Assembly (NCBI GenBank): GCA_965209085.1
Contig: OZ242376.1
Span: 704,001 to 768,000 of the forward strand
Direction of reading: 5' to 3'
Length of the DNA: 64,000 bases
Source of the DNA: Nitrosopumilaceae archaeon
Lineage (GTDB): Archaea; Thermoproteota; Nitrososphaeria; Nitrososphaerales; Nitrosopumilaceae
Position numbers and translations under genes: made by a program. How positions within the stretch are numbered: the first letter of the stretch is position 1; the number at the start of each line of letters is the position of its first letter. Shown here one piece after another: positions 13,401 to 30,617 of this stretch. The notes under the pieces were generated by a model, which did no database searches, was not told the origin of the DNA, and worked only from the letters and a program-made list of their open reading frames with translations.

Positions 13401-16400
13401 CGAACTGACAAACCTGACCATATACAGCAGCAACTCTGATGCATCACTTGCAACCACAGGCGACACACTAAACATTACAATCACCGCAAACGAGGCACTA
13501 CAGGGGGCAAACGTCACTGTTCTAAATGCCACATATATGATGACCATAAACGGCACCACGGCAAACGCATCCCTGATTGTAAATGATACACATCCTGAAG
13601 GAATAGTGACCTTTAACATCACAGCATTTGATCTTGCAGGAAACAGCCTTGTAACAAACCAGACGCAGCTAAACTCATCAAACGTCACAATAGACAAAAG
13701 TATACCTGGCGTGAGCAATCTAACCGTATACAGTAGCAATCAGAATGCATCGTTTGCAAAGGCCGGAGATGTGATAAACATTACCCTGCGTGCATCAGAG
13801 CAAATCAACAATGTGACCCTGTCAATCCTCAACAGCGCCATCAACATGAGCATAACAAACGATACTGCCACTGCAAACTATACGGTTGAACAAAATGACA
13901 CAAACGGACCTGTATCATTTAACATTACAGCATATGATAATACTGGCAACAAGTTTATCGTAACACAAAGTAGCATTATAACCGGCAGCGTTACAATTGA
14001 TACAGCAGATCCGCAGCTGCAAACCCTGACCATATACAGCAGTAACTCTGATGCATCACTTGCAACCACAGGCGACACACTAAACATTACAATCACCGCA
14101 AACGAGGCACTACAGGGGGCAAACGTCACTGTTCTAAATGCCACATATGTGATGACCATAAACGGCACCACGGCAAACGCATCCCTGACTGTAAATGCAA
14201 ACAATACGGACGGACAAGTCACATTTAACATCACAGCATTTGATCTTGCAGGAAACAGCCTTGTAACAAACCAGACGCAGCTAAACTCCTCAAACGTCAC
14301 AATAGACAAAAGTATACCTGGCGTGAGCAATCTAACCGTATACAGCAGCAATCAGAATGCATCGTTTGCAAAGGCCGGAGATGTGATAAACATTACCCTG
14401 CGTGCATCAGAGCAAATCAACAATGTGACCCTGTTAATCCTCAACAGCGCCATCAACATGAACATAACAAACGATACTGCCACTGCAAACTATACGGTTG
14501 AACAAAATGACACAAACGGACCTGTATCATTTAACATTACAGCATATGATAATACTGGCCACGAGTTTATCGTAACACAAAGCAGCATTACAACCGGCAG
14601 CGTTACAATTGATACAGCAGATCCGCAGTTGCAAACCCTGACCATATACAGCAACAACCCCATAACCGATCATGCAAAAACGGGACATTTGCTAAACATT
14701 ACAATCACCGCAAACGAGGCACTACGGGGGGCAAACGTCACTGTTCTAAATGCCACATATGTGATGACCATAAACGGCACCACGGCAAACGCATCCCTGA
14801 CTGTAAATGCAAACAATACGGACGGACAAGTCACATTTAACATCACAGCATTTGATCTTGCAGGAAACAGCCTTGTAACAAACCAGACGCAGCTAAACTC
14901 CTCAAACGTCACAATAGACAACACAAACCCCGAACTGACAAACCTGACCATATACAGCAGCAACCCTGATGCATCACTTGCAACCACAGGCGACACACTA
15001 AACATTACAATCACCGCAAACGAGGCACTACAGGGGGCAAACGTCACTGTTCTAAATGCCACATATGTGATGACCATAAACGGCACCACGGCAAACGCAT
15101 CACTGACTGTAAATGCAAACAATACGGACGGACAAGTCACATTTAACATCACAGCATTTGATCTTGCAGGAAACAGCCTTGTAACAAACCAGACGCAGCT
15201 AAACTCCTCAAACGTCACAATAGACAAAAGTATACCTGGCGTGAGCAATCTAACCGTATACAGCAGCAATCAGAATGCATCGTTTGCAAAGGCCGGAGAT
15301 GTGATAAACATTACCCTGCGTGCATCAGAGCAAATCAACAATGTGACCCTGTTAATCCTCAACAGCGCCATCAACATGAACATAACAAACGATACTGCCA
15401 CTGCAAACTATACGGTTGAACAAAATGACACAAACGGACCTGTATCATTTAACATTACAGCATATGATAATACTGGCAACGAGTTTATCGTAACACAAAG
15501 CAGCATTACAACCCGCAGCGTTACAATTGATACAGCAGATCCGCAGTTGCAAACCCTGACCATATACAGCAACAACCCCATAACCGATCATGCAAAAACG
15601 GGACATTTGCTAAACATTACAATCACCGCAAACGAGGCACTACGGGGGGCAAACGTCACTGTTCTAAATGCCACATATGTGATGACCATAAACGGCACCA
15701 CGGCAAACGCATCCCTGACTGTAAATGCAAACAATACGGACGGACAAGTCACATTTAACATCACAGCATTTGATCTTGCAGGAAACAGCCTTGTAACAAA
15801 CCAGACGCAGCTAAACTCCTCAAACGTCACAATAGACAACACAAACCCCGAACTGACAAACCTGACCATATACAGCAGCAACCCTGATGCATCACTTGCA
15901 ACCACAGGCGACACACTAAACATTACAATCACCGCAAACGAGGCACTACAGGGGGCAAATGTCACTGTTCTAAATGACACATATGTGATGACCATAAACG
16001 GCACCACGGCAAACGCATCCCTGACTGTAAATGCAAACAATACGGACGGACAAGTCACATTTAACATCACAGCATTTGATCTTGCAGGAAACAGTCTGAC
16101 GACAAATCAGACGCATCTGGACTCTTCAAACGTCACAATAGATCACAGCATACCTGGAGTGGGCAGCCTGACCATATACAGCAGCAACGCCAATCAATCG
16201 CTTGCAAAAGCTGGAGACGTGATAAACATTACCCTGCAGGCAACAAAGCCAATCCAAAATGCAATCCTGATAATTCTAAACGACACCATCAACATGAACG
16301 TAACAAATGATACAGCCTCTGCCATCATCACGGTTCTACAAATCACCGCAAACGGACCTGTATCATTCAACATTACTGCGCATGACATTGTAGGCAACGC

Positions 16401-19206
16401 ATTTACAGTATCAGAGAACAGTCTCCCATCCGGCAGCGTCACAATCGATACAATCAATCCAGAGCTGACAAACCTGACCATATACAGCGACAATTTCAGA
16501 ACAGATTATGCAAAAACAAACCACATGCTAAACATTACAATTACTGCAAACGAGACCCTCTCTTTTGCAAACATTACGGTTCTAGGCAACACCCATGCGA
16601 TGAGCGTAAACGGCAGTACTGCAAATACAACCCTGACTGTAAATGACAGCCATGCAGAAGGGCCTGTAACATTCAACATTACCGCATTTGATCTTGCAGG
16701 AAACAGTCTGATGACAAATCAGACGCATCTGGACTCTTCAAACGTCACAATAGACAAAACAGATCCGCATCTGACAAACCTGACCATATACAGCGACAAC
16801 TCCAACTCGTCACTTGCAAAGGCAGGAAATGTGATAAACATAACTCTTCAGGCATCAGAAAAAATCTGGAATGCAACTTTGATAATTCTAAACAACACCA
16901 TAGACATGAGCGTAACAAACGATACCGCTTTTGCAAACATTACGGTTTTGCAAAACACCACAAACGGATTGGTGGAATTTAACATTATCATATATGATAA
17001 TGCAGCCAACACGCTTGATGTGACGCACGCTGACCTTGCATCCGATAACGTCGTAATAGACACAATCGACCCGAGTCTGGTAAACCTGACCATATACAGC
17101 GACAACCCCAATCCATCCTATGCAAAAGCAGGCGATCTGATAACCATCACGTTAACTACAACTGAGCCAATCGGCAGCGTAAATGCCACCATACTAGGCA
17201 AAACCGCCAACACATCCATCAACGGTAGTGTATCTATTGCAAGTATTTTGATCGAACAGGATGCCACAAACGGTCAGATCGAATTCAAGATGGACGTATT
17301 TGACAACACTGGCAATGTATACGTGACTACATACACCCAATACAATCTACGGACTGGTAATGTATTTGTAGACACGGAAATACCAGTAATTGAGCTCATA
17401 CTTGATGCACATTCAGCTAGTGATCTTGATGGCAACGTTGGCGACAGAGTGAAAATAAACAACACATACAATGATCCTGGATCTCGTGTATACGATAATG
17501 ATCCCAATTATGATGGTGTAGCAAACACCACGTCAAACGTAAACGTATCTGTTATTGGAGTATATCATGTTAAATACGATGCAACAGATAATGCAGGCAA
17601 TACTGCGCAATTAGTGTACAGGACAGTATCTGTGCTAACTATTAACGGTTCAGTAAACGTAGTATTGTCATTACCCATACCAACTCCTGTAATATATTCG
17701 CACATTGCATACCTAAATACTACAAAATGGAATGAAAATAATGCTACATCTTTTAACCATAATCTAATAATATTGATAAACAACACGATGGTGATAAAAA
17801 TTGAAAATTCTACCGTATTTGATACAAACACGCAGAACATTAGAAACCTTGATTTTGACAATTTCCTCATCCACGGCTCTGTATTAAACAACAGCCGCAC
17901 AGTATCACTTGGCCATAATAATATTAAATACGATATTTCATCTAGTGCCGTAATGATTACGTTCATTAACGTTCGGGATCTATCCAATGTGCCATTTTAT
18001 TGGGAAACTTTGAACGGGCCTACCACAAATATAGCGCGATATTACAGTGACGATATCCAAAATGGCACTATCGCACATCAAATTTTATCTGATAATTCGA
18101 CATTAAATGGCAGTATGTATACGGTGGATGCTGAGAATAGGCGTATAACAGTTTGGACAACCCATCTTACCAGCTATGCAATTAATGATATTGTTATTGG
18201 CAGTAATGGCGAATCTGACAATGATAATTCTGCGCCGACCATGGGACTTGGCAGCATTGGAAACCGCCTCGTAGAGAACGGCTTTGAGTATAACGGTCTT
18301 GCCGTAAACGCAAACAGGTATTATACGGAATTCCCGTTAATTGGCACAAACGTAGGAGCATTAAACACGCTGAAAATGAAATTCTACGACAGTGCCGGAC
18401 CTGCTGGCATAAAACGGGTGGAGATTGCATTTGGCGTACCAGACATCGGATTATACCACGAGGCTGAAGCATTTGTAGAGATTTGGATGCAACGAGACGC
18501 ACTTGCAGTACAAGAGATCGTAATTGAAGACAAACTAAACATACTTGAAGATTCGGACATATCGGTAACAATTTCCGAGACGTCGTGTTCAGGTGATGCA
18601 GAACAATGCTTGTTGGTGGATCTAAAATATTCATACAAGGAATCCCCCGCATATGAGACTGTTGCAATCAAACCCGTAGACTGGGATAATGACGCCTTTC
18701 AGTTTTACTTTAACGATGGAATACACGTTTATGGGGATTCGTTAAACCTTCCAAAAGAAATTATAATAAGCAACTCGCATGCCATATCTGACAATCGGGA
18801 ACAACTGCACTTGATTCAAACTGACAGAATAAACGGAATCTGGGTGGATCAGTATGGATCAACTTGGGCGATAAACGAGAATAACATAAGACAAATTACT
18901 ACCCTGTATGAAGAGCAAAGGAGTGAAAAGAGTGCTGGCATCCTGCACGGTCCGAATCGTCATCATGAGAGTTTTGAATCTGTAAAACAGCTCGAAGTTC
19001 AAAAAGCGCAAATAGTTGTAGCAGAGTTGCTTGGTTCAGCGTACCATCTAAATCCGTTGCCCGAGCACGATAAGGGCATCTACTTTTATGCCTCGGATTC
19101 AAACGGTGATAAAGCATTTATCACGATCTTAAAACTTGAAAACGAACGCATGCAAAAACTTGCAGATGAAATGTACGGAAACCTGCACGATGATGGCGAA
19201 GACTAA
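1..19206 (+). CDS. Giant surface/adhesin-like protein, 5'-partial (>6400 aa): five visible LVIVD-type beta-propellers, DUF5011-like and other Ig-like domains, a 20-unit stalk and a globular C-terminal domain
   Basis: Frame 1 is open from base 1 (ITQDNLTGEN...) to TAA at 19204-19206. The GTG at 202 is an internal codon of the repeat. Recurrent motifs are 'YALV....DGVQIIDITNPxSP' blades and 'YTYTA.AD.AGN.G....RTVTV' Ig-like domains. Confidence 0.9.
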   Translation: MTQDNLTGENLIIDTIPPLLYLYGANNTVSPLGATYADDGAYSYDTSYGKQNVSGTGAVNTNSVAEYVITYAVSDWAGNQRQITRTISVEILPEISLTNQIYSFLASPTSNVTKSAAYPHLKDPRNLEIAQIGGTTYALAIGYGGSSITILDISYPQSPSLVFSANTSTANYENLNGVIGISVIQIQSKTYAVTASLFSNSVTMMDITNPASPIVTSSIVNGTNYPFLDVPYSVSTVHIDNNAYALVPSYPNNWVAILDITNPASPIHVGVMKNGTDYALNGVQYVTTVNIDGSTYVLAASRNGNNIAIINISNPASPVQVHVISDSNGVDLELYHVIRIEILHQNGRIYALATGGDNGVQIIDITHIELPFPVSAVQNENGYPALVLAQDIATIRVGNSTYALAPSKPANAVQIIDITNPQLPQPVSAIGSNTDTSYLNDPYAIETVTINGDAYAVVTSRTSNGVQIIKLEHAIESIPSAFSIASNNSNNAYAKAGDTISMQLAVNDTISSYAVQFVNPSVSVTTTSGINTINALVTIPTVSIQGYANYTVSLENSLKVTLNLTQDDIIGQNVFVDTIPPGIELIGPAQYTVFVGTQNPTIPGAKALDESPGYSVSNYTVASDPLNTSNIGDTVTYTYTANADAAGNLGASINRTVTVVDFDPIIFTSLIVNSDNSNSSYVKSGDVITITLVTDGSDIGNATGDILGDSFTAFASGGSISLTKTVTQSDTNGNLTFDIYVTNSTDHAIRITQDNLTGENLIIDTIPPLLYLYGANNTVSPLGATYADDGAYSYDTSYGKQNVSGTGAVNTNSVAEYVITYAVSDWAGNQRQITRTISVEILPEISLTNQIYSFLASPTSNVTKSAAYPHLKDPRNLEIAQIGGTTYALAIGYGGSSITILDISDPQSPSLVFSANTSTANYENLNGVIGISVIQIQSKTYAVTASLFSNSVTMMDITNPASPIVTSSIVNGTNYPFLNVPYSVSTVHIDNNAYALVPSYPNNWVAILDITNPASPIHVGVMKNGTDYALNGVQYVTTVNIDGSTYVLAASRSGNNIAIINISNPASPVQVHVISDSNGVDLELYHVIRIEILHQNGRIYALATGGDSGVQIIDITHMELPFPVSAVQNENGYPALVLARDIATIRVENSTYALAPSDSTNAVQIIDITNPQLPQPVSAIGSNTDTSYLADPYAIETVTINGDAYAVVTSRTSNGVQIIKLEHAIESIPSAFSIASNNSNNAYAKAGDTISMQLAVNDTISSYAVQFVNPSVSVTTTSGINTINALVTIPTVSIQGYANYTVSLENSFGVELNLTQDDIIGQNVFVDTIPPRIELIGPAQYTVFVGTQNPTIPGAKALDESPGYSVSNYTVTFGPLNTSNIGDTVTYTYTANADAAGNLGASINRTVTVVDFDPIIFTSLIVNSDNSNSSYVKSGDVITITLVTDGSDIGNATGDILGDSFTAFASGGSISLTKTVTQSDTNGNLTFDIYVTNSSDYAIRVTQDDLTSGNIIIDTTAPNITLNGANNTVSLLNRTYADKNATAYDLSYGYKTILPTGSVTTTSVGNYTLTYTAPDDPAGNPGNTISRTVIVSDAAPLVLVTKFIHSPSGTLTRGIDFPNAIFTNNINLFETSGKTYVLLAHGSSGAWIIADVTNPASPSAVFSNNTFASAYITSIFTIDNNPYAIAVGSTGTTRIIDISLPASPSVIATLVNGTEYPRLYNALGVTTVTIGASTFALVASGNPSNGVQIIDITNPHSPSPVSYITDDTDGYLELGGAFDITTVTIGSSVYALVASITDDGVQIINITDPYNPSNTSSVTDGNEGYDKLDGAYGITTVTVGSSVYALVASFIDDGVQIINITDPYNPSNASSATDGIGGYDTLDGPDSITTVTVGSSVYALVVSIFDEGIQTIDITNPYNPKPAYSFIDNTDGYENLNQPRDVITATINGAAYAFIPATEGLQIIKLESPPVNIISNNTNPAYAKTGDTLTIQFTINDTISSHTSQILGLTPAVSISGADFSATITVPPVQTESYATFAAEVVNNDGATLSVTENDVPLASNVFIDTIGPRISLIGASSFTVILNSTDPFIPGAIITDGDPNYPNTFTITINGTLDTGVINSTVTYTYTAAADGAGNAGSSVTRTVTVVEAEPITINSLTIASSSGTNYANANKTITVTLATDGSDLGNFTGTLLGRSFTNTTNGGSAEFTATVVSGDDGNATFSITVTNSSGSQISITNANITDGSYVTIDTIKPVIALTGGNDSVLQGETYQDPGTIVSDSNNASYAGPVSASSIDTSTLGAKTITYTGTADAAGNEPNQITRTVTVLAKPLGINSLTIESNNNVNTSFAKDGDVITVTLVANGTIGNVTGVIAGNSATYTVTGNNASATVTVDGTFTDTASVTFSITVYNEDNSTFRTFTNTNLTGSNIAIDTTAPSITLNGANNTIVIMNQPYEDPNATASDTSYATGSVQVSGAGNVNTAIVGNYTLTYTAPDDYAGNTGPIITRTVIVPDAPTINITNFTITSDNSNTSYAKAGDTLTLTLSVNDTITNYTGKILNIAPDTQTLGNNDRTFSQTLLVPTSATESYANFTATVENVNGTTLTVTENDLTGPNVFVDTIPPNITLIGLADSDIVLNSAYTDLGATARDGDPNYSGNYTSTINGTFGTATLGAIYEYTYTADADAAGNPGDSVNRTVTVVNLPFGLYDIQYNLTVYPIYDIHDSTSVNPTDYNTLKGAIDSSIVRINNSIYVLVAAFVDDGVQIINITDPESPESVYDINSVNGFGNLDQITDIVTTQIDGFTYALTISNALNEIQIINITNISLPVSLDTLRDDASTILDDPRGIDVAQIGNHTYVLVASSTDNGIQIINITDPTSLQPVSNITDSVNLNSTSAVSIVKIDGHTYAIVAARYANAIQIINITNPSSPDIVSNATYAAGYAGLSDVFDVDTIKINGFTYAVTTSKGNNGIEIINITDPLLPARISNIPNPSEFIFGHDISTMHLDGLSYVLASSFRNDTVAILDISDPTSPFIAANISDGEEYPGLDGPHSVIPVEINGYSYAVVASEFDNGVQIIRLAHNTTAVQLPNFITNTTAVQLPNFITNTNANSSYAKAGDNLTIQINANYEITSHNVTILTPGLNHTNVSNGDRLNVSITIPDDPLIESYLNFTITISNYNSSLVLTQNNLTGGDIFIDNIQPTISLVNFSNYTVLRNGLNQSIPGAVANDGSPGYAGNYTVKTNDTLNTRILDHTVLYTYTADEDAAGNPGASIDRTVTVVNPSIGVHDVQYNFTVYPVSVLFDDNLNALQGVKDVSTIKINGSTYALVTVSGDNIIQIINITDPASPEIVTAIANTENFAIRTFIDEIVTLQIDGFAYALYASFNNNTLQIINITNISSPNTLNVIRDNSTLILNRTGQIDIAIIENHTYALVTSLEDNGIQIINITNPEFPSITSNITGRLFEEPFALSVVKIDDYTYVLTANFLRDNIRITNITNPKFPELVGVYPSVIGYHGIASIDSYNIDGSTYAVTGASISNKIEIINITKPLFYTHDLQLFDAPGYFLDISITQLDGRSYLIALSPYNDTVTIFDISDPELPYVAASISDGLEYTILNKPSSLDFFEINGYSYALVTATDDNGIQIIRLEYASSTPLPILITSDNANSSFARSGDVLTVEINANDTITSYNAVILDPTLNTTVTLVGENRLIASVIVPFEYAGGSATFNIIIRNPTSSFAVTQNDLTGKNVFMAIAVVNLTISSNNHDPSFAKVGDVIDITLQVTAQIQNATLIILNNTINMNVTNDTASANVTILQNSVNGPVSFNITAYDNIGNRFTITQANLTSNNVTIDTIDPLLVNLTIYSDNYNSSLATTGNTLNITITANETLSFANITVLGNTHVMSVNGSTANTTLTVNDSHAEGPVTFNITAFDLAGNSLVTNQTQINSSNVTIDKSTPGVSNLTVYSSNQNTSLAKAGDVINITLRASEQINNVTLSILNSTIAMSITNDTATANYTVEQNDTNGPVSFSITAYDNTGNTLTVTQSDLTSENVITDTINPQLANLTIYSSNPDASLATTGDTLNITITANEALQGANVTVLNATYVMTITGTSANISLTVNPAHLDGQVTFNITIFDLAGNSLTANQTNLNSSNVTIDSTNPQLTNLTVYSGNPNTSLAKAGDVINITLRASEQINNVTLSILNSTIAMSITNDTATANYTVAQNDTNGPVSFSIAAYDNTGNTLTVTQSDLTSENVITDTINPQLANLTIYSSNPDASLATTGDTLNITITANEALQGANVTVLNATYVMTINGTSANVSLTVNPAHPDGQVTFNITAFDLAGNSLVTNQTQLNSSNVTIDNTNPELTNLTIYSSNPDASLATTGDTLNITITANEALQGANVTVLNDTYVMTINGTTANASLTVNANNTDGQVTFNITAFDLAGNSLTANQTNLNSSNVTIDNTNPELTNLTIYSSNSDASLATTGDTLNITITANEALQGANVTVLNATYMMTINGTTANASLIVNDTHPEGIVTFNITAFDLAGNSLVTNQTQLNSSNVTIDKSIPGVSNLTVYSSNQNASFAKAGDVINITLRASEQINNVTLSILNSAINMSITNDTATANYTVEQNDTNGPVSFNITAYDNTGNKFIVTQSSIITGSVTIDTADPQLQTLTIYSSNSDASLATTGDTLNITITANEALQGANVTVLNATYVMTINGTTANASLTVNANNTDGQVTFNITAFDLAGNSLVTNQTQLNSSNVTIDKSIPGVSNLTVYSSNQNASFAKAGDVINITLRASEQINNVTLLILNSAINMNITNDTATANYTVEQNDTNGPVSFNITAYDNTGHEFIVTQSSITTGSVTIDTADPQLQTLTIYSNNPITDHAKTGHLLNITITANEALRGANVTVLNATYVMTINGTTANASLTVNANNTDGQVTFNITAFDLAGNSLVTNQTQLNSSNVTIDNTNPELTNLTIYSSNPDASLATTGDTLNITITANEALQGANVTVLNATYVMTINGTTANASLTVNANNTDGQVTFNITAFDLAGNSLVTNQTQLNSSNVTIDKSIPGVSNLTVYSSNQNASFAKAGDVINITLRASEQINNVTLLILNSAINMNITNDTATANYTVEQNDTNGPVSFNITAYDNTGNEFIVTQSSITTRSVTIDTADPQLQTLTIYSNNPITDHAKTGHLLNITITANEALRGANVTVLNATYVMTINGTTANASLTVNANNTDGQVTFNITAFDLAGNSLVTNQTQLNSSNVTIDNTNPELTNLTIYSSNPDASLATTGDTLNITITANEALQGANVTVLNDTYVMTINGTTANASLTVNANNTDGQVTFNITAFDLAGNSLTTNQTHLDSSNVTIDHSIPGVGSLTIYSSNANQSLAKAGDVINITLQATKPIQNAILIILNDTINMNVTNDTASAIITVLQITANGPVSFNITAHDIVGNAFTVSENSLPSGSVTIDTINPELTNLTIYSDNFRTDYAKTNHMLNITITANETLSFANITVLGNTHAMSVNGSTANTTLTVNDSHAEGPVTFNITAFDLAGNSLMTNQTHLDSSNVTIDKTDPHLTNLTIYSDNSNSSLAKAGNVINITLQASEKIWNATLIILNNTIDMSVTNDTAFANITVLQNTTNGLVEFNIIIYDNAANTLDVTHADLASDNVVIDTIDPSLVNLTIYSDNPNPSYAKAGDLITITLTTTEPIGSVNATILGKTANTSINGSVSIASILIEQDATNGQIEFKMDVFDNTGNVYVTTYTQYNLRTGNVFVDTEIPVIELILDAHSASDLDGNVGDRVKINNTYNDPGSRVYDNDPNYDGVANTTSNVNVSVIGVYHVKYDATDNAGNTAQLVYRTVSVLTINGSVNVVLSLPIPTPVIYSHIAYLNTTKWNENNATSFNHNLIILINNTMVIKIENSTVFDTNTQNIRNLDFDNFLIHGSVLNNSRTVSLGHNNIKYDISSSAVMITFINVRDLSNVPFYWETLNGPTTNIARYYSDDIQNGTIAHQILSDNSTLNGSMYTVDAENRRITVWTTHLTSYAINDIVIGSNGESDNDNSAPTMGLGSIGNRLVENGFEYNGLAVNANRYYTEFPLIGTNVGALNTLKMKFYDSAGPAGIKRVEIAFGVPDIGLYHEAEAFVEIWMQRDALAVQEIVIEDKLNILEDSDISVTISETSCSGDAEQCLLVDLKYSYKESPAYETVAIKPVDWDNDAFQFYFNDGIHVYGDSLNLPKEIIISNSHAISDNREQLHLIQTDRINGIWVDQYGSTWAINENNIRQITTLYEEQRSEKSAGILHGPNRHHESFESVKQLEVQKAQIVVAELLGSAYHLNPLPEHDKGIYFYASDSNGDKAFITILKLENERMQKLADEMYGNLHDDGED
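9247..9325 (+). repeat. 36-bp in-frame tandem duplication (NTTAVQLPNFIT x2)
   Basis: aacaccactgccgtacagctgccaaatttcattacc occurs at 9247 and 9283. Confidence 0.95.
11260..17390 (+). repeat. Array of 20 x ~306-bp (102-aa) Ig-like repeats of two types
   Basis: Type A is AKAGDVINITL...AYDNTGN and type B is ATTGDTLNITITANE...AFDLAGN. A 918-bp higher-order period is visible (14341 vs 15259). Confidence 0.9.
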
Positions 19207-20985: not shown

Positions 20986-21046
20986 TAGGGTCTGCCAACA
21001 CTTCAAGTGCATCGGACTTGCATGTTTTCAGTCCATTAAACGGACA

Positions 21047-22375
21047 TTATGCGGTAGGATCTGAGATTCGACCCATAAATAAAATGGTTTCAGTCTGATC
21101 ATCCCATATTGCAAATATAAACGGATGATCCGCTTTGAATATGATTGAGGAGAATCTCAAAACATCCTCCATCGCAGCAGGTGGATCCGCTGGAACGGTT
21201 CCTTTTTCATGCACGTTTAAAAATGCTCTGTGAATCATATCGTCGATGCTTAATTCAGGTGCAGGTGACATATTCAACATGTTGGAATTTTTTTTATCAA
21301 ATGCATCAGTTATTCCAAGTTTTTTTAATGATGATATTAACGATCCAGAATATTCTGTATCTAATTTGAATGTTGGTATGATCACTTGAATGCTGTTCTG
21401 TAGCTCTGTGCTATCTATCCACGCAACAAATATCTCTGCTGTAAGTCTTTCTTCAAGTTTAGCAATACCGTACCTCTCTTCGGGAAGAACTATTACCATA
21501 GACAGACGTTGCGGATCAGACTTGTACGGGAGTTTTAGTATTTGTACATTGTCGATTTGTCTGTATTGTACATTCTCAATTTGTCTGTATTGTGCACCAC
21601 CGGCACGCACCATCACGTTAGTTTTTACAGATTCAACATTGTTTATCCAAAAATCAACGTAGCCTATTCTATCTTCTGCTATGAATTCATCCATCCAGGA
21701 TCCATAAAAAAAAATCGTGTTGACAATCATGAAATTCAAATCAGGATCCGATAGTGTCGTATAGTTTACTATTTTAGGTATCTTTCCCCTTGTTGAATCA
21801 TTCATCCATTTGTTAATTTTATCAGAACTTTGTGCATTAAATGAACCAACGGTATTGTTGTAATGGACAGCCATCGTATCGGTGTATTCGGGGAGTATTG
21901 GAAAACTATCTCTAACCCACAGGGAGTTTTTTATGTCCAAATCATAATCTGAGTTTGGGTTTGTAAGGCTCTCCACTAGATCTATTATTTCATTTCTGCG
22001 TGAATTATCATCAGAAGATATGTCAAGTGCGTCTTCCATCTGCAATGCAGTATTGTTTCTTGTACCCTCGTATGCCATCATCATGCCTACAAATATGCTT
22101 GTGGGTGAAAAAAAGATATTTTTATTACCGTCGGATTCGAGCATTTTGTACAAATTTATGGCAAGTATATTGTTTGCTTTGGAAACAGATTGTTCTGTAT
22201 TGTTTGCTTTGGAGATATATTGTTCTATATTGTTTGTTTCAGAAACAGATTGTTCTGTATTATCTTCAAGCTGTAATTTTAAATCGTATTCTGATATTAG
22301 AAATACAAAACCAAATGCGGCCGATATGATAATCCCTACTATGATAATTGAGAGTTTATCGTACGTTGAGACCAT
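21047..22375 (-). CDS. Serpin with N-terminal membrane anchor/signal and an atypical hinge
   Basis: Motifs NIFFSPTSI, INKWMNDSTRGKIP, NTIFFYGSW, FKADHPFIFAI and LFMGRISDP. There are 30-bp repeats near 22170-22260 and a 24-bp duplication near 21545-21595. Confidence 0.93.
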   Translation of the reverse strand: MVSTYDKLSIIIVGIIISAAFGFVFLISEYDLKLQLEDNTEQSVSETNNIEQYISKANNTEQSVSKANNILAINLYKMLESDGNKNIFFSPTSIFVGMMMAYEGTRNNTALQMEDALDISSDDNSRRNEIIDLVESLTNPNSDYDLDIKNSLWVRDSFPILPEYTDTMAVHYNNTVGSFNAQSSDKINKWMNDSTRGKIPKIVNYTTLSDPDLNFMIVNTIFFYGSWMDEFIAEDRIGYVDFWINNVESVKTNVMVRAGGAQYRQIENVQYRQIDNVQILKLPYKSDPQRLSMVIVLPEERYGIAKLEERLTAEIFVAWIDSTELQNSIQVIIPTFKLDTEYSGSLISSLKKLGITDAFDKKNSNMLNMSPAPELSIDDMIHRAFLNVHEKGTVPADPPAAMEDVLRFSSIIFKADHPFIFAIWDDQTETILFMGRISDPTA

Positions 22376-23001
22376 TTTTTACGTTTTCCCATGCGCTGAA
22401 GAATTTATAATATGTATCTTCGTAATTACTATTTTGAGATGTAATAATAATATTTGAATTACAAAATGATGAATTACTGACATCTATAGTGTTGGTATCT
22501 TCGGGTGTAAATATACAAACAGAACCAACATGTACACCCACAAGTACGGCGCCATCCCCATGATAAACAATAGGAGCCCCATTATCGCCAATTCTAGATT
22601 TATAATTGTCAATTCCCATTTCAGTGTATGTTCCTTGAATACTATCTATTGTTACGTTTTTGAAAACAAGACTCCCATCATTATTATTATATTGACCGTA
22701 TATGTTAATCGTGGACAAAACTTCCACGTCAGATAAAGTGCCATGAGTTACAGTGAATATAGTACCGTTTAACATTCGTACGTGGTTTAATGGTGCAGTT
22801 GTGTCACTATTACTTGTCCGAATAAATGCCGCGTCATAATTTCCAATAGTACCAATTCCATTCAATGTGGAAAATACTACTGTATTATTTAAATCACCTA
22901 TATGTGGTAATGGAATTACGTGCGTTGGTTCGTAAAAGTTGCGTGATGCGTTTATGGTATGACCTGCCACTACAACACCATGATGGCCATTAGTGGTTGT
23001 A
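22356..23001 (-). pseudogene. Chymotrypsin-fold (S1-like) protease domain, 5'-truncated by IS3, with the catalytic Ser replaced by Asn
   Basis: Motifs VVAGH, DAAFI, GDNGAP and GVHVG. The stop overlaps the serpin start by 20 nt. Confidence 0.7.
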
Positions 23002-24322
23002 TGGTGCGGACCCCTGTACAATGAGAACGTTTTTTGCATTAAAAATGATAGGATCGGAGGGCTTATTTTATCATTGCCCTCCGTGCGAGACCAAATTCTG
23101 ATGGCACCACACATCCTATTGCAGTGTACCTGGTTCTGATTGTAATCCTCAAAGGCGTATGATATTGCATTCTCTGCGTCCTGGAACGGCTCAAAGTCGC
23201 GCGGCCAGACATACTCTTTCTTGAGATTCTTGTGGAAGGATTCCACATGAGCATTTTGCTCTGACGTGTGATAGTGGATGAATTCCTGCCTCACACCGTA
23301 TACTTTTACAGCCTTGTCAAATTGCGCTAAAATATACTGGGAGCCGTTGTCGGTTCTTAAAACAAGCTTTGAGCAGTCTGGTTTCTTGGATGCCAAAGCT
23401 TCAGTTAATGCTGCAATTGCACCGTCGGTAATAGCTCTTGACTCAAACGCATATCCGACCCATTCGCGGGTAAATGCAAAGGATGTTGAATAGGTAACAC
23501 CATCTGTCCTGACCGCACCAAATGTACGTCATGTCAGCTTTCCAGAGCTGATCCGGTCCTGCAGGTTTTAGGCGCTTCCTTGAGCGAATAATCTCTTTTT
23601 TGGGTTTTGCAGACACACTCCGGCCCAGATAATGGTATATTTTCTTCACTTTTTTGCAGTTTACTGGTTTGCCTGTAATACGGGACATGGTGGCAGCCAT
23701 TCTTCGTGTTCCATATGTGGGTCTGCTCTGAGCAACCTGTTGCACCATCTTTGAGATTTCCTTGTCGATTTGAATAATGCGTGGTTTTTTCGGAGCGTAC
23801 AGCATATTGTTTGATATTCCGGTATAACGTATGGATTTGCGTGTACTGAGGCCTTGTTTTTGCATGAGGGTCAATGCTTTCATTTTGTGCTCTCCTCTAA
23901 CGTTTTTTTTAAAGCATCATTGGCTATGGTTAGATCTCCAATGATTCTCTTCAACTTGTCCATCTCATGATCGTGCTTTTTACTCTCATTACGATTATAC
24001 GGTTTTTTTATGCCTGCCTTGCCACATTCAAAGAATATGTCCCTCCACCGGGTAAAGGATGCCGGATTTATGTTATGTTTGCGACACAGTTCTGCAGGAG
24101 TGATGTGCGTGTTTATTGACTCCATGACGATACGCACCTTTTCGTCTGGAGCATGATGTGGTCTTTTCATTAGACCTCATGCATAATCATTAAAATCAGT
24201 CATTTTTATTCGTAAAAATTGTGAATTTGGTCCATTATGCATGAAGTCTATTGATGGATACCTCCAAGACTGGGTAAAATTTGTTTCACTTTGGGTGTTC
24301 TCATTTTATGGGGTCCACTCCA
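23002..24322 (-). mobile_element. IS3-family element (orfA 23880-24170; orfB from 23883, frameshifted)
   Basis: Ends are TGGTGCGGACCCC.TACAATGAGAAC and TGGAGTGGACCCCATAAAATGAGAAC. Motifs are WKADMTYI, TDNGSQY and NAHVESFH. Confidence 0.9.
24172..24249. mobile_element. 78-bp MITE with 16-bp TIRs and 3-bp target duplication
   Basis: ATT|AGACCTCATGCATAAT...ATTATGCATGAAGTCT|ATT. It is absent from the related IS3 left end at 50130-50272, and a second copy starts at 47039. Confidence 0.9.
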
Positions 24323-24592
24323 ATGCTTGATATCATATTTTGTATGCTAAAGGATAGGAGTGAATTTGAAATACATCATAGTTAAAGCAACAACCCGCGG
24401 GTTAGACTTTGGGGATGTTACCCCGGCTGCATAACTGCGGTAAGCTTTAACATGTAGATGAAGATGGTTGTGGGATTAAATCCTGAATGGATAGATGTCT
24501 TTTCATCTTTTGACTGGAAACAGACACATAGTGAAAGCCATACCGCATGACACAAAAAAGCAAGAAACCTTTAAAAAGTATTCACATGGATA
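24323..24592 (+). mobile_element. IS110/IS1111-type right-end relic (last 20 codons plus non-coding right end)
   Basis: MLDIIFCMLKDRSEFEIHHS* aligns with MLKVIYWLLKENRDFEQNYS* of element B. It ends in CACATGGATA like element B. Confidence 0.85.
24390..24510 (+). ncRNA. Putative bridge/seek RNA of the IS110 relic
   Basis: Two stem-internal loop-hairpin modules are conserved with 28415-28532 and show compensatory base changes. Confidence 0.75.
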
Positions 24593-24599
24593 AACTCTA

Positions 24600-25250
24600 T
24601 TATTCAAAGAGTTTATTCTTGCTAATCGTACTATCTTCGCCTATTAATCTATCACCATTTACTTTGTACATACCATACATGTCAGCCAAAGGCCACCATG
24701 CATCTGGAAAAATACGATGAGCTCTATCCACCATGATAAATACTTGATCTCCCTCATCATATAGTATCCTTGTAGAAGGAAATCTGCTTACAATCTCAAT
24801 TGTATCGTGTTCATATTCTTCTGTACCTCCTAGTATTTCATCAACATTGAGAAAATATTTAGTGTATGATAATTCACATCTAGATGTACAATTTTCTTTC
24901 GTGACTGTTCCTTTTTCCATCGAAGTTATTGTGCCGATCATTACGAGTTGTGCGTCATCTTTTATTTCATACGGATCTGTTGTAGTAAATGAACCAATAG
25001 ATACAATAGAGTTTGAATTAATTTCCGATGCATCAGTCAAATTCAATGCGTGTGGATTGTCACTTGAGGTTTCTGATTTTTTAGTATTTTTCAAATCATC
25101 ATTGTTCGTATGTATTTCCGAATTACTCGTATTCATGTTGTTGGCAGATACTAGTACATCATTACCAATTATGGTATCAGAACTGATAACAAAAACAACA
25201 GCTAGACCTGCAAACAATACGGTTAATGATAGTACAAGTTTTATATTCAT
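24600..25250 (-). CDS. Secreted or membrane-anchored hypothetical protein
   Basis: 216-aa ORF with an N-terminal hydrophobic helix followed by a low-complexity linker. Confidence 0.7.
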   Translation of the reverse strand: MNIKLVLSLTVLFAGLAVVFVISSDTIIGNDVLVSANNMNTSNSEIHTNNDDLKNTKKSETSSDNPHALNLTDASEINSNSIVSIGSFTTTDPYEIKDDAQLVMIGTITSMEKGTVTKENCTSRCELSYTKYFLNVDEILGGTEEYEHDTIEIVSRFPSTRILYDEGDQVFIMVDRAHRIFPDAWWPLADMYGMYKVNGDRLIGEDSTISKNKLFE

Positions 25251-25311
25251 TAGTACAACCTCATTGCGATCTTACGATCATCTTCATCGATATATGTGTT
25301 ATTATCATTCA

Positions 25312-26169
25312 GGCTCTGTCCATGAATAAAATCAAAAACATACCATAAAGCTTTTAGATCATGAACGTAAACAACCGAAAAAGCTTTGGATCAGTAGATC
25401 CGAGCCAATTTAATGAAATCAACAAAGCACAAACGACGAGGAAATCTTGCCAGATCATACCAAATGTTAACCTCGATTATAATGAAAGCAAAAAATCAAG
25501 TGATAAAGCCATGGAAACCAAGTCCGTTAGGACAAACCGGCTTTGACCACCTTGGGAATGACTGCGTGTATTGCCCTAAAAACAATGTAACAACTGTCAT
25601 ACGATGAACTCGTAGATTATCTTGAAGATTCACCACGTTTACTATCAATACTGGGCTTGAAAAGAGTGCCGTCAAGGTCGGCGTTGCAAGTAGCATCTAC
25701 TAGAATTGATGTACATTTCATCACATGAGTGATAAATTCTGCGAGCTGACCTGGAATGAAAGGTACGCTATACGGGGATTCTACAGGAATTGCAATAAAC
25801 GGGCATAACACATGGCTTGATGCAAAAAATGGATCAAGGTCCAGACGGGATTATCGCAAATTGCATATTGTAACTGCTGAAAACGGCATAATCATATCAT
25901 ATGATATTACCCATGCACGATGCCATGATGTACCAATATTTGAGCAAATATGTGGCACGCTGCCGCACGGTTCCGGCCACGTGATGCTTGATGCAGCATA
26001 TCTTTCACGTAATATATGCACGCTCATAGAAAAGATCGGACAAATTCCTGTAATAATGCCAAGAAAAGGTGTTCGCGTACGTGGATTTGACGCAATGGGA
26101 AAGATGCTTCGATGGCATCGTGATAATCCTGATGAATTTCGATCCACATACCACAAACGCAGCAACGTA
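25312..26169 (+). mobile_element. IS5-family (IS903-like) element, degraded and 3'-truncated
   Basis: TIR GGCTCTGTCCATGAAT. Motifs GDSTG, YRKLHI, HD, LDAAY and YHKRSNV, with internal stops. Highly similar to 46432-47038 and 52880-53433. Confidence 0.85.
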
Positions 26170-27145
26170 ACCATATGTGCCCAAGAAATCAAGGAATTCA
26201 GATGGTTGCTTAAATGATAAATCCGTATCAGTCAACAAACGCAAGCCCAAAAACAAAGCTCAAAATGCAAACAAAAACACTAGGGTGTTTAAGAGCAAGT
26301 CCATGTTTGTTGGAATTGACGCCCATAAAGAATTTCTCCAGATAGCAGCAATTGACGGCAAAGGCAAACTGATCTTAAACACGCGTGTTGAAAACAGACA
26401 CGCGGACATTAGAAAGTTTTTCCAAACAAGCATACCCGAGGGTTTAAAGATGGTAATGGAGTCATCATCTGTCTGGTACGGACTGTTCCGATACATGACC
26501 GACAGACTGGATCTTGATGTGATTCTCTCAAACCCATATCAGACAAAGGCCATTGCCGCATCCACTAAAAAAACAGACAAAGTTGATGCGCAAATTTTGG
26601 CAAATTTGCTGCGAGGAGGATATATCAACGAGTGCCATGTTCCAGGTAAAAAGATTGTAGAGCAAAGACAACTGGTCCGATACAGGCACAAACTTGTACA
26701 GGCGAGAACAAATATGAAAAATTCCATACATGGAATACTGCTCCAAAAAGGAATTAAAATTCCAGGACGTACGTTTTCGTACAAATACATTGCAAGCCTT
26801 TAAGCCATAAACGACTATCGAATAGACGGTTTTCTTGCATCCATTGGCCTTTATGATAATCAGATACAAAAAGCCAATGTACTGATCTACAAGAGTGCAC
26901 GTACAAGCCGGTATGCCGATATACTCAAAACTGTCCCCGGAATTGCAGATTTTACGGCATTAACGATTGCATCTGAGATTGATAATGTTGAGAGATTCTC
27001 TGATCCTGAAAAGCTAAAATCATACGCAGGACTTGCACCATCGGTCCGCAATTCTGCCAATCTCGTACATCATGGACACATAACAAAAAGAGGAAGCAGA
27101 ATGCTCAGGTGGGTTCTAGTTGAGGCAATACACTCGCACGTACTA

Positions 27146-28255
27146 TACCTGCAAGCATAAATTCGTTTAAAAATCCACCATTACACAGTAGCAACGTTTT
27201 TTGATCACGACATCGGAACCAATTCATGCAAGTTAGCAATGAGGATCTCCTCCAGGCTTATAATGACTGCAAAGATTCTCGCGTAGAAACAAGACTGCAT
27301 GCGATGTGTCTGGTGCAAATACGCGGCTACGACATACAAGAAACCGCGGATCTCGTATTCCGAACGTACCAGTTTGTACACAAATGGCACGTTCGATACG
27401 AAAAATACGGACTCATAGGCCTGGAGGAAGGGTCCTGATGCGGACGACCGCCAAAGATTTCACCAAATATCATGATGCAGATAGAAAAAAAGTTTACAAA
27501 AATCGGAACCATTACGCTTCCAAAGCAGGTCCGTGATTACATTAAAAATATGACAGGAATAACATATCATATTACGCATATATGCAGACTGATGCGGGAA
27601 TGGAAACTAAAATCAAAGGTACCGCAAAAAATACACGCTAATGCCTGCATCATACGCTGAGTGTTATGCATGGTATAGGCGCATAATGTGCATTATTGCC
27701 CACGAAATGGCAAGAGGGACAAAGATCTTTGTCCAGGATGAGACCATAGTGAGCAGTGATGGTAAACCGACTAAAAAATACTGGTGTAATGAGAATGAAC
27801 GTCCCATCTATACATGGAAGGGGGATCGCAGAAAATTCATAACATACGGAATGATTTCAGTTTCAGGGGAGAAATTTTTTAGATCATACGACAAGTTTGA
27901 TGGTCTGACGTTTTTATGATACATAAAAGATGCAGTAGCAAAATACGGCAGAATACTGGTAATCGTAGACAGAGCCCGGCAGCATAAAACGATAAAGCTT
28001 GAAGAATACATCAAAGAGAACAAGGATAAGATTCAGATAGAACACCTCCCAAGAGCATCACCACAACACAACACCATGGAGACGATCTGGCTTGTCGCCA
28101 AGCAGGATATGGATCATTCAGAATATTATCCCCAACTTGAAGAGAAGAGGGTTAGGTTTATGGAATATCTGCGTACGAGAAAACTGCCGGGTAATGTCAT
28201 TGATTATTTTAAACCAGAGTGGGTTAATTTTTAAACGAATTTATGATCTGGGGTA
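27146..28255 (+). mobile_element. IS630-family element (pseudogenised) inserted in the IS110-B transposase
   Basis: TIRs TACC......CATAAATTCGTTTAAAAAT with TA duplication (27144-45, 28256-57). Removing it restores HVLHAPKSD. Motifs QDET, VDRA and NTMETIW. Confidence 0.92.
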
Positions 28256-28414
28256 TACATGCACCAAAAAGTGACATTTCAATATTTTACAAGCGGCTTG
28301 CAAGAAAGAGAGGAAACTCCAAGGCTGCAGTTGCAGCAGCTGGAAAAATGCTAAAGGTGATTTACTGGTTACTAAAGGAGAATCGGGATTTTGAACAAAA
28401 TTACAGTTAGTTGC

Positions 28415-28532
28415 ACGACCGCGGCGCAGTATATGGAGATAGTGCTCCGAGATTGTAACTGCGGTAAGCTCTAACAAGTGGATGAAGATGGTTGTGGGGA
28501 TAATGCCCCGAATGGATATATGTCTCTCATTC
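28415..28532 (+). ncRNA. Putative bridge/seek RNA of IS110 element B
   Basis: The target-loop guide CGCAGTATA is complementary to the right junction. The donor-loop guides AGATGGTTG and AATGGATA match the element's own ends. Confidence 0.8.
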
Positions 28533-28617
28533 TTTAATTGGAAAAATAGCCCCTAGTGGATACTGTACAAAAATATGGAAAAACGCAAGGAATACTTAAA
28601 AAAGAGGCACATGGATA

Positions 28618-29733
28618 TACTGCGGATCAAAAGTAACTGCAATCTACAGCTTTTCTCATAACAAAATCCATTATTGATACTTTGAATCGTACAGTTCTAA
28701 AATATTCTGAAATTGTATATTTCATATTCTCAAATGTTTCATAATATTCAGTGACGGCCAACGCACGTTTGGCCTGATACCAACATTCTTCAACGGCACT
28801 CAGAAACGGTGAACTTGTAGGGAAAAACAAAAGCTTTACCTCATCTTTATTCTCAGATATATATTTTTTAATAATTTTGGATTTTCTGTGTTGTGCAGCT
28901 CTATCCGTAATTATGCAAATTTTTCCAAATTTTTGATGAGCCATTTTTAAAAACTTGAGAAATGATTTTGCATCAAACAAATCATAGCTTGCAAACATCT
29001 GCCTGCCATCAGATAAGAATAATCCAAAGACAACAACTTTTTTGTGAAAACCTGTGGATTTTACGTAACAATTTTTGCTTATTTCAATCCAGAGTTTCTT
29101 GCCGGATAATGAATCGTATTTTATTATACATTCATCCTGAACGCCTACTGCAAATCCACGCTCTTCAAGTAGGCGTATTTGACGCCTAGTGTTTTGCGAC
29201 CAGTTGTAGCAGACTGATGCCGGCGCTGCATTGACATGAATTCTTTTTGGAGCCTTGCTGACAAATGAGAATTTGTGAAGTCTTTTTCTGATGTTTGATA
29301 TGTGATATTTTACTTCGGTTTTGCGTTTAATGTTGTGCATTACCTGTTTTGGATCAACTGAACCGTTCTCTCGTCTTGTCATGTCAATAATTTTTTTAAA
29401 TCGTATATTTGATAATAATAAAGGCCTGCCCGATTTGGGCAGGGTTTTAAGACCGTCTAATCCAAGCTCGTCATATCGTTGCATGCATTCTTTGCCCCAG
29501 TTGTAGCTTTTCATCAATAATTCAGAAGCTTTAGCTATGGATATGTTTTGGTATTTGACCATGCTTACAAGATATATTTTTGATATCTCTTTTCTGTCTT
29601 TGACATGCCTGCTTGCATTATACAGTTCCTGATGTTCTTTGTTCATGATTGATTCATACCCGAGGTGATCCAAATATCTTGCGGTTACATTGTGTCTAGA
29701 GTCATAAATTGCAGTTACTTTTGCGTGTCAGTA
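28618..29733 (-). mobile_element. IS630-family element with an intact-looking transposase (28627-29673)
   Basis: TIRs TACTG.....CAAAAGTAACTGCAAT flanked by TA on both sides. Single 348-aa ORF with QDE, TDRA and SP...AVEECW. Confidence 0.92.
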
Positions 29734-29735
29734 TA

Positions 29736-30028
29736 GTACGCAGGATTTGGCACCTCCTGTACTAGTATCTGCCATTTCAACAACCACAACTGAAATAATC
29801 CTCACGTTTAGCGAACCGATAACTGAGCAATCTGGCAATGAGATAAACTATGCAATAACAGGAGCAGAGATCCGGGACATTACAAAGATCGGCTCAAATA
29901 CTGTGTTAATATCTGCAAGCCCGTTCATTATTGCAATAGTTCAGACTGCCCCCCTCTCAAACATACAGGACTTTTCTGGCAACACCGCAGAAAGAGGGTT
30001 AGACCAGAACGTCTTTAAAAGTGGTTAA
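29736..30028 (+). pseudogene. C-terminal fragment of a surface protein (Ig-like domain) cut by IS630
   Basis: APPVLVSA...IILTFSEPI...IQDFSGN is Ig-like. It has no proper start and abuts the IS end. Confidence 0.55.
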
Positions 30029-30617
30029 AGATAACCCATGTATGAGATCCGCACCTCGTGCTAATTTGTGCCTACATCTTCATTTATTGCATAAATTCTA
30101 GGCATGATGTGACCTCATACTAACACATCATCTAGTAGTAAAACTACACCCGTATGGAACTGCATCTAAAAAATCTCATACTGTAAGAAAAACTATACCT
30201 GAATTGCTTGCATCAAAAACGATCAAGATAAACGCATACGATACACGTAGTTTTTTGCAGCAATATGGGGGGCTCTAATGGAGCGCAGATTGTCGATTCA
30301 AAAGATACCGTTACAATCCTGCCTGAAATTAAACGCCAACCAAAATTCCTCGCATTTTGTAAAACCTGTAAAACACATCCGTAAACCCTGTAAATCCGGC
30401 ATAAAAAACAAAAGATTTGATCTGCAAACCGTAGATTCACTCTATAATTTTGATCGCAAACTCTTCAAAAAACTCTCAATTACACACTAGAGAATTCACA
30501 TTTTACCTGACTGCGTATTTTCCAAAGCCGTGTGCAAATAACAGCCAACATTTTGTCGCCAATAGTCAAAAAATATTGTTTATCATAGTCTATGATACGG
30601 TACATCGTATACAATAC

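Follow-up and report, generated by a model that had tools for sequence, protein, structure and literature searches.

The insertion sequences (IS) IS4321 and IS5075 reportedly home to the ends of Tn21-family transposons. For IS1111 elements, a study of seekRNAs describes an RNA encoded 3' of the transposase gene, in which the match to the top strand lies 5' of the match to the bottom strand and both overlap the crossover, together with sub-terminal inverted repeats of ~7-17 bp and terminal extensions of 7 bp on the left and 3 bp on the right (PMC11187229). Bridge RNAs are predicted in the right end of IS1111 elements by Durrant et al. 2024 (PMC11208160), and IS621 recombines substrates matching only the core and one arm, according to a preprint (Xie et al. 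2026, 10.64898/2026.08.31.748434). Here we describe IS110-B, an element with such an RNA module, located in a window of 64,000 nucleotides (nt) of a Nitrosopumilaceae archaeon (assembly GCA_965209085.1, contig OZ242376.1, positions 704,001 to 768,000). This window comes from a genome of 1.69 Mb in one contig (G000), whose rRNA genes score best with archaeal models, and coordinates without another label are window positions. IS110-B (26170-28615, plus strand, including a nested IS) very probably homes under the guidance of its RNA to the ends of a second insertion sequence, IS630-X, through the core dinucleotide and the right arm of the target.

The right end of IS110-B, ...GGCACATGGA, terminates at 28615 and is followed by a TA (28616-28617) and directly by IS630-X (28618-29734, minus strand). 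The target site TATACTGCG (28616-28624, plus strand) is formed by this TA, which represents both the core and the IS630 target duplication, and by the 7 nt with which the inverted repeat of IS630-X opens. The guide CGCAGTATA (28425-28433) is the exact reverse complement of this site. Both this pairing and an insertion made precisely at the IS630 end, leaving TA and repeat intact, had been proposed in an earlier note on this DNA, and the junction sequences bear them out, as IS110-B lies outside the inverted repeat, the TA is restored and the repeat is left whole. The chance of a 9/9 match in a fixed register is 4^-9, and guide and junction recur in the other three genomic copies, with one junction short of 2 nt. 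The match between guide and flank is beyond chance.

All four copies of IS110-B in the genome (the window copy and those at 666534-667867, 857774-856440 and 1173451-1172110 of G000) adjoin the same end of IS630-X in the same orientation and start at one base, reading TA followed by ACCATATG, with the left core TA of the window copy at 26168-26169. The sequence upstream of this TA is different each time (CAACG, GATAC, ATACTC and CATACC) and the DNA past IS630-X is unrelated among the four loci (GTACGCA, CTTGGGG, GAGTCAA and GTAGATG). Three of the junctions between the two elements read ...CACATGGA-TATACTGCGGATC... and the fourth is short of 2 nt. The latter belongs to the 1.17-Mb copy (G000 1172110-1172120), which reads ...CACATGGATAACTGCGG without the TA present in the other three and is the most diverged copy in both its IS110-B and its IS630 part. 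Thus, mapping of the insertions upholds the homing of one transposon onto another that the earlier note had claimed, while the "safe-site strategy" that it attached to this behaviour is an extrapolation from four insertions. The matching ends of the full IS630-X copies are occupied in four cases and empty in two (left contexts AATAG-TA and ACAAC-TA), and a degenerate partial copy, which reads TATATTGCG at the matching end, is empty as well. The opposite ends, represented in the window by the TA at 29735-29736, read TATACTGAC when turned and match the guide at 7/9 positions, as had been described; none of the six is occupied. The 18 nt composed of TATACTGCG and the next 9 nt stand at 5 IS630-X ends, and the 9-mer itself occurs 27 times in the genome, against ~13 occurrences expected from base composition. 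These 27 comprise 4 guide DNAs, 3 occupied IS630 ends, 2 empty IS630 ends and 18 unrelated sites. No copy bearing this guide at a site unrelated to IS630, the finding that the earlier note had named as contrary, was detected in the genome. Repeated insertion at one position and in one orientation is what characterizes transposon-end homing of the IS4321/IS5075 kind, here in a small sample from one genome.

Downstream of the transposase frame, the core of a putative bridge/seek RNA (28407-28541, plus strand) was delineated with RNAalifold and a covariance model as two modules, each consisting of an outer stem, an internal loop and an inner hairpin. The RNAalifold consensus of IS110-B and six relatives, over 135 nt from 28407, contains 34 pairs, 4 of which display compensatory changes, and the covariance model, R1, scores 146.7 bits on 28407-28541. 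The single-sequence fold of 28405-28615 is no more stable than that of shuffles (z = -0.98), and thus the structure rests on the alignment and not on energy. An Rfam scan of 24300-28700 with E up to 1 matched no family, and no run recorded as RNA in the public runs listing contains the 28407-28541 stretch. In the first module, the 5' guide CGCAGTATA (plus strand) is complementary to the top strand over the core TA and 7 nt of the right target, and the 3' guide AGATTGTA, which reads AGATTCTA in two copies (28450-28457, plus strand), has the sense of left target and core. In the second module, the 5' guide AGATGGTTG (28486-28494, plus strand), placed as the target guide is in the first, is complementary to the core and the left end, (TA)ACCAT..., and the 3' guide AATGGATA (28511-28518, plus strand) has the sense of right end and core, (C)ATGGA-TA. 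Since its strands fit the left end with the core and the right end with the core, the second module is, judged by these sequence matches, the donor loop and the first, by position, the target loop. The donor loop covaries with the right end, ATGGA accompanying the end CACATGGA in G000 and ATAGA accompanying CACATAGA in G001, a genome of the same genus. Two loops with top- and bottom-strand guides that overlap at the core, as in bridge RNAs, are present in this clade; the 3' target guide fits the flank in relatives, but not in IS110-B.

The correspondence between guide and flank extends to these relatives. In G001 the guide GTAAATGTA pairs with the right flank TGCATTTAC, GTAAATATA pairs with TGTATTTAC, with the change present on both sides, and GCCACTATA pairs with TATAGTGGT. 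Similarly, the G001 3' guide ATGTTCTA equals the left flank GTTC-TA, and the 3' guide of the IS110-A family equals TGCA-TA. All fetched elements of this RNA type were pooled, with one row for each distinct guide/flank pair. An element's own guide agreed with its flank at 7/9 or more positions in 21 of 40 such pairs, as compared with 1 of 590 for guides of other subfamilies; rows within a subfamily are related and often involve the same repeat family, and the independent evidence amounts to about six guide/target classes, not 40 events. Relative to GTAAATATA of the nearest G001 relatives, the right guide of IS110-B has changed at 4/9 positions, while the left guide is almost unchanged, at one or two bases from the GTTC-TA of G001. 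Model R1 retrieves 21 copies of the RNA in G000, 33 in G001 and others in nine further genomes, so that 11 of the 101 family genomes are matched. Most G001 elements lie inside or at the end of MITEs (miniature transposable elements with inverted repeats), and IS110-A sits in the inverted repeat of a ~88-bp MITE at TTATGCA-T[AG]-A[AG][GC]TCTA, many such sites being empty. Elements of this clade habitually home to small repeats, to which the IS630 end adds a new target.

The domains, architecture and RNA of IS110-B place it in the IS110 family, as an element of the IS1111 type with atypically placed sub-terminal repeats. The transposase displays an N-terminal DEDD/RuvC-like domain (PF01548, DEDD_Tnp_IS110, 26177-26803, 2.8e-26) and a C-terminal Transposase_20 domain (PF02371, 26807-27142, 2.5e-22), the combination that defines the IS110 family; both Pfam models were also matched elsewhere across G000 in a genome-wide search. 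The left segment of IS110-B (26170-27145, plus strand) carries the left end ACCATATGTGCC; within it the transposase frame opens at the ATG at 26303, meets a TAA at 26801-26803 and runs on to the break. The right segment (28256-28615, plus strand), delimited by sequence and by alignment of the four copies, holds the end of the frame (stop 28408-28410), the non-coding RNA region and the right end. The frame is hence broken by the TAA and, in the window copy only, by a nested element. The 205 nt between the stop codon and the right end at 28615 are non-coding, compared with only ~130 nt before the ATG, and a long non-coding region 3' of the transposase gene is the mark of IS1111 elements with seekRNAs (PMC11187229). 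The ends, ACCATATGTGCC... and ...GGCACATGGA, carry no usual terminal inverted repeats and have a TA on each side in all four copies, with no target duplication beyond the shared core dinucleotide. The sub-terminal repeat is imperfect, CCAT(AT)GTGCC and GGCACATGG, beginning 1 nt from each end. The four copies are 98-99.5% identical to one another and the G001 relatives are 75-78% identical to IS110-B.

The interruption of the window copy is caused by a further IS630-family element (27146-28255, plus strand), distinct from IS630-X, which lies inside the transposase gene between TA dinucleotides at 27144-27145 and 28256-28257 and carries degenerate frames with an HTH_23 match (Pfam) at 27226-27438. 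Its inverted repeats begin TACCTGCAAGC, and at least 7 related genome copies show 85-98% identity. The other three copies of IS110-B are uninterrupted at this position. Contigs of sequencing runs X1-X3 join 27143 to 28256, skipping 1112 nt from TA to TA, and contigs of X1-X4 show the un-nested form of IS110-B; a 151-nt contig of X4 spans the junction between IS110-B and IS630-X. The contigs of these four runs, which may derive from the source sample and not be independent, revealed no new insertion sites.

IS630-X conforms to the IS630/Tc1-mariner type, with a DDE_3 domain (6.3e-15) and an N-terminal helix-turn-helix (HTH_32) in Pfam, inverted repeats and a TA on both sides of six full copies. 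The repeats (28618-28643 and 29709-29734) are imperfect and 26 nt long. The transposase frame occupies 28627-29673 on the minus strand, and IS110-B therefore stands at the 3', stop-codon end of that gene. The window copy and the two solo copies retain it as an intact ATG frame of 339 amino acids (aa), and indels or an insertion disrupt it in the remaining three occupied copies. The pattern of variants among the copies is mosaic.

In the proposed mechanism, the donor loop would read the joined ends of IS110-B itself, ...CATGGA-TA-ACCAT..., and the 9-nt 5' guide of the target loop would pair with the TA and the first 7 nt of the IS630-X repeat, with recombination at that TA. IS110-B would thus be inserted between the flanking DNA and the IS630 tip, regenerating the TA and leaving the repeat untouched. 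Any TA can receive an IS630 element, and a target at its end must accordingly have an arbitrary left half that changes from site to site. The short 3' guide, of 4 nt and the core, would remain unmatched to these left halves and homing would in effect operate on a half-site composed of the core and the right arm. By analogy with the studied IS1111 and IS621 elements, the RNA is presumed to be made and used as in those systems. In the relatives, four bases and the core are read by the 3' guide. Its sequence in IS110-B is ATTG-TA or ATTC-TA, which agrees with each flank at the TA and at 1-3 of the four bases before it. Over the four copies this gives 7/16 matching positions against 4 expected, which is not significant. 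The comparison of the four flanks agrees with the earlier suggestion that the second guide would not fit a left flank that varies with each copy, and the left arm would appear to be dispensable in vivo. From its sequence, the left guide of IS110-B looks like a leftover of an ancestral repeat target (GTTC-TA), only the right guide having been reprogrammed.

The behaviour of IS110-B is closest to that of IS4321/IS5075 and lies near the homing of other family members to repetitive extragenic palindromic (REP) sequences, attC sites and MITEs. As is said of IS4321/IS5075, an IS1111-type element would home to the inverted repeat of another transposon at a fixed position and in a fixed orientation. 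In contrast to that pair, which is reportedly found in bacteria, IS110-B has an archaeal host, and its target is the boundary between TA duplication and repeat of an IS630/Tc1-mariner-type IS, of which one half is arbitrary flank and from which the repeat emerges whole. Like ISEc11, ISPa11 and ISKpn4 (Siddiquee et al. 2024, PMC11187229), IS110-B belongs to a group of elements with the non-coding region 3' of the transposase gene and two short target matches that overlap at the crossover, each IS group having a target of its own. The transposase of the IS110-B type also includes the GL-P motif region of the IS1111 family (GLAPSVRNSA). In contrast to the IS1111 seekRNA elements, the terminal extension of IS110-B is 1 nt, not 7 and 3 bp, the repeats are short and imperfect, none of the four sites shows a left-arm match, and the element is known from sequence alone. 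IS110-B shares with IS621 target and donor loops that each contain the core dinucleotide, a target read by a long and a short arm (PMC11208160) and, presumably, recombination at substrates matching the core and one arm (Xie et al. 2026). In IS621, however, the RNA lies at the opposite end of the element with the order of the arms mirrored, the core is CT instead of the TA of IS110-B (TG being tolerated in relatives), and the half-match is an off-target event, whereas in IS110-B it would be the regular natural target. Like ISPpu9/ISPpu10 in REP sequences and IS1111 with Coxiella MITEs, IS110-B occupies a multi-copy, selectively neutral target; unlike theirs, this target is an autonomous, protein-coding IS able to copy the site anew. 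Homing of IS110/IS1111 elements to IS630 ends or to archaeal IS ends was not found in the titles and abstracts of the literature searched, and supplementary tables of IS110 surveys may list such cases. What is new is the IS630/Tc1-mariner-type boundary as a class of target, the archaeal host and the built-in half-site; homing of IS1111 elements to repeats and transposon ends was known.

A number of observations weigh against RNA-guided homing to IS630-X ends. Only four events in one genome are available, and no IS630-X above 70% identity is present in the 40 relatives searched, where its kin are represented by a 68% relative in G001 and elsewhere by short fragments. The 18 unrelated exact 9-mer sites, one of which shares 12 nt with the IS630 end, are all empty. 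The difference in occupancy between IS630 ends and these sites (Fisher, 3/5 vs 0/18, p = 0.0056; 4/6 vs 0/18, p = 0.0014) itself speaks for homing and indicates that IS630 ends are used more than the bare 9-mer predicts. Possible reasons for the excess are recognition beyond the 9-mer, counter-selection elsewhere, or four events being too few or very rare. The register of pairing is shifted, as the guide of the IS110-B clade pairs from the first core base and the 9-nt guide of IS110-A (GTTAGACTT/GTTAGAGTT, with the 3' guide GCTGCATA) pairs from the second core base or later, with the bases after the TA, two bases further into the right flank. Two fragments resembling IS110-B lie away from IS630-X. 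One, at G000 672890-673083, is a degraded 170-nt left-end fragment with 91% identity and the left flank GTTC-TA, after which the first 32 nt of the left end recur in inverted orientation. The other, at G000 329539-329674, is a right-end remnant 85% identical to IS110-B that lies inside a MITE; its target loop is deleted and its flank, T+TATACTCC, resembles the IS630-X target at 7/9 positions, and it may record an earlier target, from which IS630 ends came to be targeted. The identical in-frame TAA (26801-26803) is present in all four copies, at a position where an intact 362-aa relative in G001 has Lys. Unless the stop was spread by gene conversion, at least three insertions must thus have occurred once a full-length transposase had been lost. 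Judged from these sequences, the autonomy of the IS110-B lineage is not demonstrable.

The left flanks pose a further difficulty, since in two of the four copies (window and 666 kb) they represent the truncated interior of another IS cut at the TA, the continuation of which was found neither past the IS630 element nor as an orphan elsewhere. In the window, the flank ends CAACGTA (26163-26169), and the IS5 continuation, which is missing at the IS110-B locus, reads GAGACC in the other window copy, as had been described, and GAGGCC in genome copies. The earlier note had deduced from this an IS630 insertion into IS5, an order that the flanks do not show: IS630 is followed on its right by a different repeat and not by the rest of IS5, and no IS5 right part in G000 is an orphan, each being joined to a left part of its own. 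The locus thus requires an additional rearrangement. The non-contiguous flanks (window 26163-26169 and 29737-30039; G000 666136-666535) thus show that the window and 666-kb loci are not simple nested insertions, and from the sequence a deletion or recombination step is implied at both. Recombination among the many IS copies may be responsible, given the mosaic variants of IS630-X. For the 857-kb copy, comparison with G001 identified no empty site, one flank being unmatched and the other matching at 68% far from the junction, and no reading frame truly spans the junction of its flanks.

The emptiness of the 18 other exact sites is also what would be seen if targeting were looser, at near-matches around a TA, and only harmless insertions at IS630 ends survived. 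The clearly unread left arm is compatible with this survivorship, as is the half-match insertion reported for IS621 in a preprint (10.64898/2026.08.31.748434). Nevertheless, the three intact junctions match at 9/9 and the guide is identical in the four copies, and selection alone makes no complementarity. Several of the empty sites may lie in genes, which is compatible with survivorship and with homing alike and not exclusive to either. Survivorship in place of homing is thus considered very unlikely.

The association of four copies out of four could also result from a single juxtaposition, if IS110-B and IS630-X moved together as a composite or expanded block. The parallel divergence of both parts of the 1.17-Mb copy points in this direction, and a 2026 preprint (10.64898/2026.08.14.744561) describes IS110 elements that grow by additions and have half-matched boundaries. 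A block moved by the IS110 route would be expected to have outer flanks resembling TACTGCG, but those found past IS630-X (listed above for the four loci) are unlike it, and the 9/9 match lies at the internal junction. Movement by the IS630 route requires an IS630 repeat at the left end of IS110-B, which instead reads ACCATATGTGCC, as in IS110-A. In addition, variants of the solo IS630-X copies recur in different occupied copies, and the latter thus do not form one group. A common block is accordingly held to be quite improbable.

A reversed order of events, in which IS110-B was first established at four unrelated sites and IS630-X, under some local preference for targets, was later inserted at the TA by its right end, draws on the fact that IS630-family elements insert at TA and that a TA follows the right end of IS110-B. 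It leaves the 9/9 complementarity between guide and IS630 tip unexplained and would leave the guide of the four elements matching nothing at the original sites. No similar left context stands beside the two solo IS630-X copies (AATAG-TA and ACAAC-TA), and in relatives the guide position predicts the right flank. This order is very hard to sustain. Finally, segmental duplication of one locus, for which large duplications such as 21000-25310 at G000 955953-960182 (97-98.6% identity) offer a precedent, is refuted, as the similarity spans exactly the interval from the left end of IS110-B to the right end of IS630-X and the flanks are unrelated on both sides.

Under RNA-guided homing to IS630-X ends, the four TAA-bearing copies would have been moved by a transposase supplied in trans, and IS110-B copies are probably either mobilised in this way or now dead. 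The likeliest source would be the intact IS110-A family, since it has intact frames (375 aa, 59.5% identity to IS110-B) and shares terminal sequences and donor-loop guides with IS110-B, which makes supply in trans plausible. More tentatively, and at the level of a possibility that we rather doubt, IS110-B could be a non-autonomous "guide satellite" that lost its transposase to the shared stop and combines the ends and donor loop of IS110-A with a target loop programmed otherwise. In that case one transposase would serve two RNA programmes, one directed to a MITE repeat and the other to the tip of an autonomous IS630, the second operating through a single arm with a vestigial left guide.

Copies of IS110-A in G000 include at least 13 with the RNA and two with an intact 375-aa open frame, intact frames being located at 694 kb and 157 kb. 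A 3' remnant is located at 24323-24601 of the window, and other copies are found, among further places, at G000 260077-261423 and 694893-693548. In G001, locus L017 (3282-3640; C1:29693-30051) contains a tandem second copy of the last 360 nt of the element, including the whole RNA module. The tandem is joined at an internal ...ACA-TG-CACC... site, and the window copy of IS110-B is split by the nested IS at the equivalent position. In a genome of another genus, locus L051 (1239-1465; G049:C140) has the guide CGCCAGTAT, near that of IS110-B, and the flank TATACTGGCGGTTGC, which matches at 9/9 from the second core base. This locus, with its 9/9 flank TATACTGGCGG, was considered as a second case of insertion at an IS630 end and rejected, as the flanking frames have no Pfam match. 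Relatives in G095 and G015 were likewise rejected as IS-end cases, as their TACTG... sites lie in unrelated DNA. A scan for the scaffold of the target loop, in which 10 nt of guide were left free, returned one match in public genome contigs and two in metagenome contigs. These three were dismissed as chance matches in high-GC bacterial DNA without IS110 features, in collections that may exclude this genome and its near relatives.

The surrounding region (25.3-30.1 kb) is a stack of mobile elements. To the left of IS110-B lies the 5' part of an IS4/IS5-type element (25312-26167, plus strand, ending ...CAACG) with a Pfam DDE_Tnp_1 match at 25756-26217; BLAST retrieves more than 10 genome copies of this part, and all matches end at 26169. 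Past 29736, a piece of a repeated gene is followed by a ~80-bp MITE. The MITEs at 30040-30120 and 24166-24253 represent two families of ~80-88 bp with dozens of genome copies each, and both families serve as landing sites for IS110-type elements in G000 or G001. The IS110-A remnant falls within the 4.3-kb segmental duplication formed by the stretch 21000-25310. Farther upstream, ~20 head-to-tail repeats of 306 nt (11264-17172), with 60-100% identity to the reference copy, apparently lie within one very long coding region, and further repeat families are present at 1-10400.

Bridge and seek RNAs are in development as programmable recombinases, and the length of guide needed in vivo is an open practical question. 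The same guide appears here to have been used at least four times on sites that have only the core and one arm in common, which suggests that in this clade the 9-nt arm carries specificity and the short arm can be ignored. IS110-B also illustrates a route of retargeting, in which the right guide changed and the left guide was nearly kept, and it adds an archaeal example of an IS that uses another, still mobile, IS as a landing pad. The point of greatest interest is that a stop-bearing element may have been moved by the enzyme of a sister family under a guide of its own. If true, this would be a natural case of bridge recombination that acts in trans on half-sites, and of insertion sequences parasitizing one another in layers.

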